From a virus (lineage: Duplodnaviria > Heunggongvirae > Uroviricota > Caudoviricetes): a stretch of 9,291 nt of DNA. Positions within the stretch are counted from its first letter, which is position 1. Every line of letters begins with the position of its first letter. Positions 1,136 through 9,291 of this stretch are shown piece by piece. The translations under genes were made by a program, and so were the position numbers. A model generated the notes under the pieces. The model saw only the letters and a program-made list of their open reading frames with translations. It was not told the DNA's origin and searched no databases. Location: IMG/VR virus record IMGVR_UViG_2778261509_000008. One strand, written 5' to 3'.

Positions 1136-1309
1136 ATGAATATTGAAAACTTAAAAACAAAAGCAGAAGCAGATATTTCTGAATATATAACAAAAAAAAT
1201 TATTGAACTTAAGAAAAAGACCGGGAAAGAAGTTACCAGTATTCAGTTTACCGCACGGGAAAAAATGACGGGTCTTGAAAGCTATGATGTCAAGATTAAT
1301 TTAATCTGA
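1136..1309 (+). CDS. gnsB: GnsA/GnsB-family protein (57 aa)
   Basis: ORF MNIENLKTKAEADISEYITKKIIELKKKTGKEVTSIQFTAREKMTGLESYDVKINLI. SD aaagagg at 1123-1129 precedes tandem ATGs at 1133 and 1136. The C-terminal FTAREKMTGLESYDVKI matches my memory of GnsA/GnsB. This ORF is under 60 aa and is absent from the supplied ORF track. Confidence 0.8.
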   Translation: MNIENLKTKAEADISEYITKKIIELKKKTGKEVTSIQFTAREKMTGLESYDVKINLI

Positions 1310-1336
1310 TGTATTCAATAATAAAATTTATCCATA

Positions 1337-1360
1337 AACCTCGTTTTTACGGGGTTTTGT
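1337..1360 (+). terminator. Putative intrinsic terminator downstream of the gns gene
   Basis: Hairpin ccucg (1339-1343) / cgggg (1350-1354) with one G-U wobble pair and a 6-nt loop, followed by tttt g tt. It lies 28 nt after the gns stop. Confidence 0.45.
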
Positions 1361-1423
1361 TATATTTGAATGGTTCCGAATATCTAAATCACAATTGTTG
1401 ATGGTTTTTATTAAACCAATGCA

Positions 1424-1452
1424 GTCCGGCTCAGGAGTGAGAGAAGCCGGAC
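1424..1452 (-). terminator. GC-rich hairpin in the convergent intergenic region (possible weak or bidirectional terminator for the ydfO-like gene)
   Basis: Perfect 8-bp inverted repeat gtccggct (1424-1431) / agccggac (1445-1452) with a 13-nt loop, 8 nt downstream of the minus-strand stop at 1461-1463. The flanking U-tracts are weak on both strands, so terminator function is uncertain. Confidence 0.35.
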
Positions 1453-1460
1453 GTTATGGT

Positions 1461-1871
1461 TTAGCGTGGTAAGATCTGTGTAGTTTTCTGGATGCTTTCA
1501 GTAAATAGTAATGAATTATCAAAGGTATAGTAATATCTTTTTTGTTCGTGGATATTTGTAACCCACCGAAAAACTCCTGCTTTAGCAAGGTTTCTTCTGT
1601 ATTCCTGAAATGTGATCTCTCTGGATTTCAGCTTATTAGAGGTCGTTTCTATAAGATGCCTATCCTTTGAAAATTTGACAGACACAATGTTTTTTAGGCC
1701 CTTTAATAACACTGTATTATCATTTTTTAATACAATATGAACATTCTCTGTGGCTAAATAGTAAATGTAATGTGAGACATTGTGACGTTTTAGCTCAGAA
1801 TAAAACCATTGATAGTTTAAATCGTTTCGAACTTTATCAAATATTTGTTTAAAAATGACTACCTGATCCAT
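1461..1871 (-). CDS. ydfO: DUF1398-family protein, YdfO-like (136 aa)
   Basis: Minus-strand [34 protein letters not shown]... The ORF track begins 5 codons upstream at 1886 (MEGLS), but the GAAGG SD is positioned for the ATG at 1871. The sequence matches my recollection of the YdfO/YbcV/YcgX (DUF1398) prophage family. Confidence 0.8.
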
Positions 1872-1928
1872 AGATAAACCTTCCATGTGATATGAGGGGG
1901 CGTAGTCTGCACGATTATCTAAATTGCT

Positions 1929-2162
1929 TCAATCTGGTCTGACCTGTTTTCTGAGCAATTCAGTAATGTCACTCTTTTCTTTGTTTGCTTCAGGAGAAAC
2001 TCTTTTTTCTGAGCACAGTCTCCGGCGGCAGGCTTCAATGACCCAGGCTGAGAAATTCCCGGACCCTTTTTGATCAAGAGCGATGTTAATTTGTTCAATC
2101 ATTTGTTTAGGAAAGCGGATGTTGCGGGTTGTTGTTCTGCGGGTTCTGTTCTTCGTTGACAT
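1929..2162 (-). CDS. ynfO: Small basic protein with predicted ribbon-helix-helix (CopG/Arc/MetJ-like) DNA-binding fold, YnfO-like (77 aa)
   Basis: Minus-strand ORF with a basic N-terminus (TKNRTRRTTTRN), then a beta-strand-like IRFPKQMIEQI and helix-like segments (NIALDQ ... FSAWVIEACRRRL), a pattern typical of RHH proteins. Weak SD ggga upstream. The RHH fold is inferred from sequence pattern only. Confidence 0.65.
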   Translation of the reverse strand: MSTKNRTRRTTTRNIRFPKQMIEQINIALDQKGSGNFSAWVIEACRRRLCSEKRVSPEANKEKSDITELLRKQVRPD

Positions 2163-2289
2163 GAGGTTGTCCCGTATTCAGTGTCGCTGATTTGTATTGT
2201 CTGAAGTTGTTTTTACGTTAAGTTGATGCAGATCAATTAATACGATACCTGCGTCATAATTGATTATTTGACGTGGTTTGATGGCGTAG

Positions 2290-2550
2290 ATGCACGTTGT
2301 GACATGTAGATGATAATTATTATCATTTTTCGGGTCCTTTCCGGCGATCCGACAGGTTACGGGGCGGCGACCTCGCGGGTTTTCGCTATTTATGAAAATT
2401 TTCCGGTTTAAGGCGTTTCCGTTCTTCTTCGTCGTAACTTAATGTTTTTATTTAAAATACCCCCTGAAAAGAAAGGAAACGACAGGTGCTGAAAGCGAGC
2501 TTTTTGGCCTCTGTCGTTTCCTTTCTCTGTTTTTGTCCGTGGAATGAACA
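2290..2550 (+). other. cos: Lambda-type cos site (cosQ, cosN, cosB) for DNA packaging
   Basis: The lambda cohesive-end sequence GGGCGGCGACCT is at 2362-2373, preceded by the lambda right-end motif gacaggttacg. cosB-type heptamers CGTTTCC are at 2414-2420 (R3) and 2515-2521 (R1), with GGAAACG at 2475-2481 (R2, inverted), and an A/T-rich IHF-like stretch at about 2441-2458. A 15-bp inverted repeat gaaaggaaacgacag (2471-2485) / ctgtcgtttcctttc (2511-2525) is present. Nu1 starts at 2551. Confidence 0.85.
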
Positions 2551-3070
2551 ATGGAAGTCAACAAAAAGCAGCTGGCTGACATTTTCGGTGCGAGTATCCG
2601 TACCATTCAGAACTGGCAGGAACAGGGAATGCCCGTTCTGCGAGGCGGTGGCAAGGGTAATGAGGTGCTTTATGACTCTGCCGCCGTTATAAAATGGTAT
2701 GCCGAAAGGGATGCTGAAATTGAGAACGAAAAGCTGCGCCGGGAGGTTGAAGAACTGCGCCAGGCCAGCGAGGCAGATCTCCAGCCAGGGACTATTGCGT
2801 ACGAACGCCATCGACTTACGCGTGCGCAGGCCGACGCACAGGAACTGAAGAATGCCAGAGACTCAGCTGAAGTGGTGGAAACCGCATTCTGTACTTTCGT
2901 GCTGTCGCGGATCGCAGGTGAAATTGCCAGTATTCTCGACGGGATCCCCCTGTCGGTGCAGCGGCGTTTTCCGGAACTGGAAAACCGACATGTTGATTTC
3001 CTGAAACGGGATATCATCAAAGCCATGAACAAAGCAGCCGCGCTGGATGAACTGATACCGGGGTTGCTGA

Positions 3071-3096
<26 letters not shown>
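2551..3096 (+). CDS. nu1: Terminase small subunit Nu1 (181 aa)
   Basis: 181-aa ORF MEVNKKQLADIFGASIRTIQNWQEQGMPVLRGG..., near-identical to phage lambda gpNu1 as I recall it, with an N-terminal winged-HTH region. It sits directly downstream of cosB, as in lambda. Confidence 0.95.
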
Positions 3097-6777
<3,681 letters not shown>

Positions 6778-8494: not shown

Positions 8495-8770
8495 ATGTCG
8501 ATGTACACAACCGCCCAGCTGCTGGCGGCAAATGAGCAGAAATTTAAGTTTGATCCGCTGTTTCTGCGTCTCTTTTTCCGTGAGAGCTATCCCTTCACCA
8601 CGGAGAAAGTCTATCTCTCACAAATTCCGGGACTGGTAAACATGGCGCTGTACGTTTCGCCGATTGTTTCCGGTGAGGTTATCCGCTCCCGTGGCGGCTC
8701 CACCTCTGAATTTACACCGGGATATGTCAAGCCGAAGCACTTAGCATGGCTTTCTGAGGCTTTCGTGTAG
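8495..8770 (+). pseudogene. E: Major capsid protein gpE, 5' fragment only (first ~82 codons, then unrelated sequence)
   Basis: Begins MSMYTTAQLLAANEQKFKFDPLFLRLFFRESYPFTTEKVYLSQIPGLVNMALYVSPIVSGEVIRSRGGSTSEFTPGYVKPKH, matching the lambda E N-terminus as recalled. It then continues as LAWLSEAFV and stops at 8768-8770. Full-length lambda gpE is 341 aa, so similarity ends near 8740. Confidence 0.85.
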
Positions 8771-8902
8771 TTGCTGGTTTTTACACTTAATCTTTTGATA
8801 ATAAAGAATAAGTTTATCTGGCGCTTTCACTGAATTTTCCTCGTTATCTGTGTGTTGCAATCATCTCTGTATTGCAGCTTGTATTGCTTTTTGGGGCTAA
8901 AA

Positions 8903-9142
8903 ATGGCTGGCGAGAACAAACTGAGCGACAAAGCGCTTAAAGGATATCTGGGGAAACCCAGAGAAAAGCAGATCACCATTGCTGATGGAAAGGGGCTTTC
9001 TATTCGTGTGAGTACTAAAGGGGCTGTGAGCTTTGTTTTCTTCTACAGGTTAGCAGGTGGCCGGGCTGCTCCGGTCTGGCTAACGTTGGGTAAATATCCT
9101 GATATGTCACTCAAACAGGCAAGGGAAAAGCGCGACGAGTGA
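8903..9142 (+). pseudogene. P4-family tyrosine integrase, N-terminal arm-type DNA-binding domain fragment only (79 aa)
   Basis: ORF MAGENKLSDKALKGYLGKPREKQITIADGKGLSIRVSTKGAVSFVFFYRLAGGRAAPVWLTLGKYPDMSLKQAREKRDE fits the pattern of the N-terminal arm domain (DUF4102-like) of P4-type integrases (LTDK..K. ... DG.GL.L.V...G.K.W..RYR ... LG.YP..SL..AR.KRDEAR). It ends at TGA 9140-9142. None of the three downstream frames continues as an integrase core or catalytic domain. SD-like gggg precedes the ATG. Confidence 0.7.
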
Positions 9143-9203
9143 GCTGGCCCCCTGAAATACCAGACAGTAGATGTATCTTAAAATAAGAGATAGGCTTGGA
9201 TAT

Positions 9204-9291
9204 ATGTCTAACACTAGTTCTAATTTTGAGATGGCTGGCGTTTTGTTAGGAAAAGAGGTGCGTAAACGTAAAACACCTCAGGAAAAAATCG
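9204..9291 (+). CDS. Possible 5' end of an ORF running off the window (MSNTSSNFEMAGVLLGKEVRKRKTPQEKI...), product unknown
   Basis: ATG at 9204 opens a frame with no stop before the window end. The SD is weak and I recognise no similarity, so this may not be a real gene. Confidence 0.2.
   Translation, partial: MSNTSSNFEMAGVLLGKEVRKRKTPQEKI

Follow-up and report, generated by a model that had tools for sequence, protein, structure and literature searches.

We analysed two adjacent minus-strand genes, ynfO and ydfO, in a 9,291-nt stretch of tailed-virus DNA (Caudoviricetes; IMG/VR record IMGVR_UViG_2778261509_000008; hereafter the window). Our reading of them, to which we give a probability of roughly 0.55, is a small ribbon-helix-helix (RHH) regulator of prophage or satellite type, accompanied by an accessory ("moron") gene that is optional and under regulation of its own; both occupy the final ~900 bp ahead of the cohesive-end site (cos) and run against the late operon. 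The two open reading frames (ORFs) are catalogued, uncharacterised prophage genes of Qin-type lambdoid prophages, and by sequence comparison they are separable neighbours, found as a pair solely in Escherichia lambdoid phages that are close relatives. The analysis demonstrates what the genes are, which families they belong to, how they are distributed among genomes and that the two are separable. The first-pass annotation of the window, made from the letters alone, had proposed a toxin-antitoxin (TA) or phage-exclusion module.

The window is the right arm of a lambdoid prophage, fused via cos to lambda-type head genes. ynfO (1929 to 2162, minus strand) encodes 77 aa and ydfO (1461 to 1871, minus strand) 136 aa. 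The first-pass description of the layout agrees with the ORF list: the genes are co-oriented on the minus strand, 57 nt apart (spacer, 1872 to 1928), opposite in strand to Nu1 and A, and flanked by the cold-shock/gnsB cluster on one side and by cos on the other. Use of another ATG farther upstream, at 1886, would extend YdfO to 141 aa (1461 to 1886, minus strand, in the ORF list); the internal ATG at 1871 is preceded 7 nt upstream by the Shine-Dalgarno sequence GAAGG, and this 136-aa start is the one annotated by RefSeq. The 77-aa protein is basic, as had been noted (18 K+R versus 9 D+E), and belongs to the YlcI/YnfO family, matching Pfam DUF3950 (PF13132; E=5e-21, 74.6 bits, cutoff 25) and NCBIfam NF041551 (YlcI_YnfO_N; 34.5 bits, cutoff 30); its core, at about residues 13 to 52, is RHH-like, and residues 53 to 77 form a variable tail. 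The 136-aa protein matched Pfam DUF1398 (PF07166; E=2e-46, 157.5 bits, cutoff 22), and the DUF1398 protein is identical at 140 of 141 positions to E. coli YdfO, PDB 2HH8 chain A, a nuclear magnetic resonance (NMR) structure. RefSeq genomes have the same layout (cspI-ymcF-ynfR-ynfN-gnsB, followed on the opposite strand by ydfO and ynfO, and after these by nohA and terminase). A 1,251-bp query (window 1300 to 2550, covering ydfO, ynfO and the cos flank) was matched by 4840 of 5426 complete E. coli genomes (~90%). The genes are listed "y-genes" that also occur in phage lambda, and naming them here brings in no new entity.

Separability rests on how each family is distributed. All distribution arguments exclude 3.5-kb lambda control-DNA contaminants and noisy reads (Staphylococcus, Streptomyces, Flavobacterium and others). 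Among 50,697 phage records, a YnfO-like gene was present in 155 and a YdfO-like (DUF1398) gene in 43, the latter all lambda-like; at least 112 records have a YnfO-like gene without DUF1398. In BP-4795 and JLK-2012, whose packaging genes are of the HNH-TerS-TerL type, a DUF3950 gene lies on the opposite strand between Rz and the packaging genes, with no DUF1398. A scan of 40 diverged YnfO loci from other Enterobacterales, one genome per species, found none with DUF1398, Nu1 or gpA within 6 kb; the hosts were Salmonella, Klebsiella, Enterobacter, Serratia, Pectobacterium, Brenneria, Xenorhabdus, Pantoea, Tatumella, Buttiauxella and others. Some of these diverged genes sit in P4-like or phage-inducible chromosomal island (PICI)-type satellites, between integrase/AlpA/BRO and primase, as the sole opposite-strand gene, and others are in other islands. 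From the other side, of 5426 E. coli genomes 5376 contain DUF1398 DNA and 4184 contain ynfO DNA, leaving at least 1192 genomes with DUF1398 and no ynfO; the surplus copies are ycgX, an orphan adjoining bluR that has no YnfO partner and is found in nearly all E. coli (PMC3509220). Within the 77-aa YnfO class the genes run together, in tandem with a spacer of ~57 to 60 nt at 83 of 86 loci, and this constancy follows from recent common descent, YnfO being 96 to 99% identical across the 86 loci.

Phage lambda carries both families at its right end and separates them: lambdap78 (a YbcV-type DUF1398 gene) is followed by plus-strand lambdap79/ybcW and then by a 64-aa YnfO homologue. The homologue lies on the complement at ~48109 to 48303, 200 bp from the right end (locus L002, 3587 to 3781), where NC_001416 has no annotated gene; a newer lambda record carries this 64-aa YlcI/YnfO-family ORF as hypothetical. 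Lambda orf-64 was considered as the YnfO homologue and rejected, as it is lambdap73, located between Q and S.

Three further observations concern the families' distribution and gene arrangement. Short contigs, many of ~3.5 kb, with lambda right-end DNA were seen in assemblies of Streptomyces, Flavobacterium, Cohnella, Arcanobacterium and other organisms (loci L089 to L120, L141 and L146); together with many frameshifted "proteins", such contigs in odd taxa resemble sequencing control-DNA contamination, which widens the apparent taxonomic range of both families. In Salmonella enterica subsp. diarizonae/arizonae, a 58-aa YnfO-family ORF (loci L123 and L124, ~5995 to 6171) lies between SopB-like inositol phosphatase and PipD-like dipeptidase genes, flanks identified by eye in translations, in a layout resembling Salmonella pathogenicity island 5 (SPI-5). 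The window has ynfO and ydfO in the same frame, and in some E. coli sequences the ynfO TGA (1929 to 1931) is replaced by TGG, giving a fusion protein of 233 aa (P0122). Read-through of the TGA or a ynfO-ydfO fusion was nevertheless rejected: across the 86 loci ydfO is in frame 0, 1 or 2 in 38, 8 and 37 cases, respectively, with a second stop in some in-frame cases, and since the frame relation differs among loci, the in-frame arrangement is not a designed feature.

This distribution bears directly on the TA proposal, in its explicit form a type II system with YnfO as RHH antitoxin, YdfO (DUF1398) as toxin and autoregulation via an inverted repeat upstream of ynfO. The order and sizes of the genes and the RHH-like fold suit such a system, and a PHROG search matched YnfO, weakly, to HicB-like proteins; RHH antitoxins (RelBE, ParDE, DinJ-YafQ and TacAT types) also appear among its weak structural neighbours. 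Against this, the genes do not stay together in diverged homologues, every diverged locus and at least 112 phage records having YnfO-like genes without DUF1398, and DUF1398 persists without YnfO as ycgX. An opposite-strand gene is interposed in lambda, the 57-nt spacer departs from the overlapping or abutting genes usual for TA modules, and past residue ~52 the lineages carry wholly different YnfO tails. YdfO matched none of the recognised toxin families of Pfam, NCBIfam or PADLOC, DUF1398 being its sole significant family assignment, and in the literature its overexpression came with no report of toxicity. YdfO was produced as protein for NMR (2HH8), and its overexpression raised peroxide resistance, according to PMC4077768, which cites Wang et al. 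2010. We consider a TA system extremely improbable.

Only slightly better placed, and still very unlikely, is an anti-phage or superinfection-exclusion pair expressed from the prophage, in which YnfO would sense or regulate and YdfO would be the effector. The slot is a typical moron slot against late transcription, like that of bor, which makes prophage expression plausible; both genes are dispensable for lytic growth, and ydfO expression changes both under stress and with the prophage regulator DicC. The unconserved pairing counts against this reading too, as does the fact that almost every E. coli keeps an unpartnered chromosomal DUF1398 gene next to bluR; neither protein matched a defence-system model in PADLOC-DB 2.0 at E<=1, and the searchable literature yielded no defence phenotype. 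The useful outcome here is negative: the TA/exclusion reading can be dropped on comparative grounds. As a separate observation, gnsB (1133 to 1309) has a match to Pfam GnsAB_toxin, described there as the "toxin of a toxin-antitoxin system"; no other gene nearby bears a TA label.

That ydfO is an accessory gene under separate control is suggested by the DNA around it and by published expression data. The spacer between the genes (minus strand) contains a -10-like GATAAT (1914 to 1919) and the ydfO Shine-Dalgarno sequence; its first 25 nt past the ynfO stop, which include GATAAT, are near-invariant across the 86 loci, and the remaining nucleotides are variable. Within the 3' end of ynfO, 60 to 76 nt upstream of the ydfO start, lies a PdhR-box-like palindrome, AACAGGTCAGACCAGAT (1932 to 1948, minus strand). 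The same 17 nt are the site recovered for PdhR at ynfO>ydfO by genomic SELEX (systematic evolution of ligands by exponential enrichment), with an exact match in the window, and when PdhR is lost the transcript level of ybcV, the paralogue in DLP12, falls ten-fold (PMC7660256). Expression of ydfO was induced >100-fold, strongly and transiently, by an imidazolium ionic liquid (PMC4077768) and changes upon DicC induction (PMC11430063). Just past the ydfO stop there is a candidate terminator hairpin (1424 to 1452, minus strand; dG -21.9 kcal/mol, z = -5.6), on which gnsB converges with a terminator-like site of its own (1336 to 1357). From the PdhR site, GATAAT, the ybcV/PdhR data, the ionic-liquid and DicC responses and the 3' hairpin, we infer that ydfO probably has a promoter of its own; separate control seems to be the case. 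YdfO, whose reported phenotypes are linked to stress, would be optional cargo of the DUF1398 family, placed behind ynfO in one lineage of phages and probably driven by a host-controlled promoter (PdhR site plus GATAAT) with possible read-through from ynfO.

Published work fits a dispensable gene. lambdap78 is non-essential in lambda (PMC10695390), and a strain with the entire Qin prophage deleted grows normally (PMC11430063); the appearance of ydfO in one in-silico study's essential-gene list was disregarded, since the whole-Qin deletion is viable. The label "head protein" or "putative envelope protein" given to DUF1398 (PHROG, RefSeq) was likewise set aside and "head protein" treated as annotation carry-over, the gene being antisense to the late operon and its lambda homologue non-essential. 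The first-pass remark that the function of DUF1398 is uncharacterised agrees with the searchable literature.

For YnfO, the first-pass prediction of an RHH fold is reasonable in view of the core motif and the modelled topology. An alignment of 26 family members has the common core k-x-I-R-F-P-x-x-L-I-E-x-I ... N-F-S-A-W-V-I-E-A-C with a conserved loop, G-S-G-N-F-S, and the strand/helix/loop/helix spacing of the YnfO core matches that of Arc and Mnt (Arc FNLRWPREVLDLV versus YnfO RNIRFPKQMIEQI). The AlphaFold2 monomer has an extended segment at residues 14 to 18 and helices at 19 to 32 and 37 to 52 (mean predicted local distance difference test score [pLDDT] 70; core, 77 to 85), a strand-helix-helix topology over ~45 residues in which a short loop precedes the second helix. 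With hhalign, YnfO 11 to 33 aligned with Arc 8 to 30 (E=0.013 in a single comparison; probability, 3%). Past residue ~52 the tail is swapped wholesale between lineages, as is expected if a mosaic junction sits at the end of the DNA-binding core. The RHH assignment is, on this modelling, supported but not proven. YnfO would be a small dimeric DNA-binding protein of the Arc/Mnt RHH type from a narrow enterobacterial family, most likely acting as a transcriptional repressor or autoregulator. Members of the family occupy two settings, the lambdoid lysis/packaging junction and P4-like/PICI-type satellites, and in the satellites the gene is alone on the opposite strand near arrays of 12- to 16-bp palindromes.

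Those arrays are indirect support for operator binding in the family. Satellite and island relatives have subfamily-specific palindromes of 12 to 16 bp, in 2 to 4 copies, 50 to 140 nt upstream of their ynfO-like genes, for example TGGTAnnTACCA in two copies and GTGTTTAAACAC (loci L150, L151, L158 and L171, ~5545 to 5589; L128, 5878 to 5980; L134; L140, 5916 to 5983). The palindromes form islands conserved across genera amid diverged spacer: Leminorella, Buttiauxella and an E. coli satellite share the two copies of TGGTAnnTACCA, with ATGGTAnnTACCAT plus TGGTACCTACCA around diverged spacer; Xenorhabdus and Pectobacterium have TGTTTAAACA and GTGTTAAAACAC, and a Klebsiella has TGTGCGCACA in three copies. 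These are likely operators, and they support the view of the YnfO family as operator-binding regulators.

In the window itself the first-pass annotation had named a candidate operator, an inverted repeat upstream of ynfO, and had remarked on its resemblance to the right end of lambda. The 8-nt cores are indeed there (ATCAATTA at 2232 to 2239 and its complement at 2257 to 2264), perfect within the longer repeat ATCAATTAATACG / CGTCATAATTGAT (2232 to 2264), which stops 70 nt short of the ynfO ATG, on its upstream side, and can be extended to 13-nt arms with 85% complementarity and a 7-nt gap. ATCAATTA matched twice versus 0.32 expected, a count of 2 being reached in 4 of 200 shuffles; as 13 comparable inverted repeats occur within the same 1.2 kb, the repeat alone is only slightly above chance. 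The lambda resemblance holds as well: the repeat is exact in every lambda-type cos flank examined, lambda included, a conservation shared by the entire ~200 bp there. Lying ~100 to 130 bp from cosN, the repeat is upstream of cosQ and outside it. Directly upstream of ynfO, a conserved block (2163 to 2249, minus strand) is a candidate promoter/control region: at locus L043 the ~87 nt upstream of ynfO stay homologous though sequence farther upstream is unrelated. A mosaic breakpoint at this locus deletes the distal arm of the repeat, and ATCAATTA repeats were absent upstream of the diverged and BP-4795-type ynfO genes when looked for there. By analogy with the satellite palindrome pairs (core spacing of 25 bp versus 24 to 36 bp), the 2232 to 2264 repeat may be a YnfO operator, a proposal that stays alive but unproven.

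If it is one, YnfO might repress a promoter upstream of ynfO at this operator and so set the level of a bicistronic ynfO-ydfO transcript, making the pair a regulator-plus-cargo operon of a non-TA kind. Such an operon is supported by the tandem arrangement at the close loci, by the ~87 nt kept across the L043 breakpoint and by the similar spacing of the satellite palindromes. It is weakened by the BP-4795-type phages, which have the identical reading strand TTTRNIRFPNQ with an unrelated upstream region lacking the ATCAATTA repeat, by L043, where the distal arm is gone, by a lambda-type repeat that lies off the GTGT...ACAC theme of the satellites, by the PdhR site that ydfO has to itself and by the splitting of the genes in lambda-type phages. 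The pair is co-oriented with a 57-nt gap and nothing terminator-like in it on a terminator scan, yet a PdhR site and a -10-like element stand before ydfO. The operon is doubtful in our judgement, although it is the strongest of the alternatives, and a regulator with a separately controlled accessory gene remains our preferred reading.

Several results weigh against this preferred reading. The fixed spacer with no terminator between the genes makes co-transcription or functional coupling possible within the 77-aa lineage. A scan of the minus strand upstream of ynfO for a sigma-70 consensus found none, and manually chosen candidates were all weak. A Foldseek search of the YnfO model against PDB gave zero matches, and a YnfO sequence profile run against PDB sequences returned noise only and reached no solved RHH protein; dimerisation and DNA binding are predicted properties of YnfO. 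The structure predicted for YdfO from 15 close homologues (pLDDT 47) gave no functional lead from its fold.

The position of ynfO next to cos raises another alternative, in which the DUF3950 protein works at cos or in DNA packaging: it would bind DNA near the genome end, or contact the small terminase, and thereby adjust packaging or the late transcription that crosses cos. Its gene occupies the slot just before the packaging module despite unrelated terminases (Nu1/A in lambda types; HNH-Terminase_2 in BP-4795 types), and in two satellite proteins, diverged from each other, DUF3950 is joined to the N-terminal helix-turn-helix (HTH) of Terminase_2 (E=1.6e-11; ORFs of 120 to 129 aa at L171, 6001 to 6363, and L170, 4714 to 5103). 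Satellites of the fusion type insert into prophage late genes, and one of them sits in the terminase genes of a BP-4795-like prophage that has its own DUF3950 gene. Many family members, on the other hand, are in islands without packaging genes nearby; the Prokaryotic Genome Annotation Pipeline (PGAP) splits the fusion ORF of the satellite in the terminase genes into two pseudogene fragments; and the satellite redirector Rpp has an unrelated fold. Lambda packaging in vitro requires only terminase, integration host factor (IHF) and proheads, and a minimal cos of ~200 bp suffices. A packaging-related role for DUF3950 is unlikely. YnfO was also considered as a relative of Rpp, the PICI redirector of the lambda terminase, and this was rejected, Rpp being a winged-helix MerR-like protein of 144 to 153 aa.

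A broader proposal, a shade more probable than a packaging role as such but still rather unlikely, would make DUF3950 an unrecognised class of small RHH regulators common to lambdoid phages and P4-like/PICI-type satellites. In satellites its members would bind subfamily-specific pairs of palindromes in the control region, the terminase-HTH fusions of some satellites would tie repression or induction to recognition of the packaging site, and the cos-adjacent copy would take part in phage-satellite cross-talk or cos events. If it were true that the family regulates satellite induction or cos events, a gap in enterobacterial satellite control would be filled. Two leads come out of the analysis: in phage satellites, proteins of the YnfO family have the look of RHH regulators whose palindromic operators are footprinted, and the YlcI/YnfO ORF is missing from the lambda reference record.

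The rest of the window contains further features. On the plus strand before the pair are a cspI-like cold-shock gene (250 to 462), a ynfN-like ORF and gnsB; the Rfam cspA thermoregulator (103 to 489, 111.9 bits) spans the leader and the whole cspI-like coding region. After ynfO come the cohesive end gggcggcgacct (2362 to 2373, plus strand), which from established lambda knowledge we take to be cosN, the genome end in the virion, and which is the same as the lambda cos region in alignment, followed by Nu1 (2551 to 3096), A, W, B, C/Nu3, D and the start of E. A plus-strand sigma-70-like site (2297 to 2326; GTGACA, 16 nt, TATCAT; 10 of 12 matches) is located immediately upstream of cosQ/cosN, directed towards Nu1. 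Within 8495 to 9291, the lambda-type major capsid gene E is broken after codon 82 (~8741) and is followed by an integrase N-terminus (Arm-DNA-bind_3, 8903 to 9139) that is cut at ~9142 by more foreign DNA, with an ORF from 9204. The break matches a published insertion site of helper-embedded satellites, E:Phage_cap_E:80 (bioRxiv 10.1101/2022.07.18.500453).

The closest known counterparts are ynfO (b4533) and ydfO (b1549) in the Qin prophage carried by E. coli K-12, ylcI and ybcV of DLP12 and lambdap78 of lambda, which keep the same order beside nohA/Nu1 and cos. Among these counterparts ydfO is 99 to 100% identical and ynfO 95 to 97% identical, with no difference of substance; YnfO residue 19 is Lys in the window copy and Asn in most relatives, and the head genes, a full lambda-type set in the window prophage, are deleted in K-12 Qin. 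RHH type II TA systems (RelBE, ParDE, DinJ-YafQ, TacAT) are similar in having a small RHH-like gene upstream of a ~130-aa gene on the same strand; ynfO-ydfO differs from them in its unconserved pairing, its want of a toxin family, the survival of DUF1398 alone and its 57-nt spacer.

Arc and Mnt of P22 (immI) are likewise small and phage encoded, with a basic N-terminal arm, two helices and a loop ending in N/S, and the strand motif N-x-R-aromatic-P is common to Arc (FNLRWP) and YnfO (RNIRFP). The genes of both lie within or adjoining the late region, and palindromic operators flank promoters in the satellite relatives of YnfO. The likeness stops short of a significant sequence match, and no antirepressor gene adjoins ynfO in the window; where Mnt has a tetramerisation coiled coil, YnfO has a variable tail of 10 to 25 residues, and operator binding by YnfO is presumed. 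The lambdoid morons bor and lom resemble the pair in being non-essential, opposite to or insulated from late transcription and variably present. Variable presence and opposite orientation are seen directly for the pair, the lambda homologue is dispensable, and the promoters are presumed. bor and lom encode outer-membrane proteins with phenotypes, whereas YdfO has no evident signal peptide; ydfO is moron-like in the terminator-like hairpin after the gene and in the host regulators that act on it.

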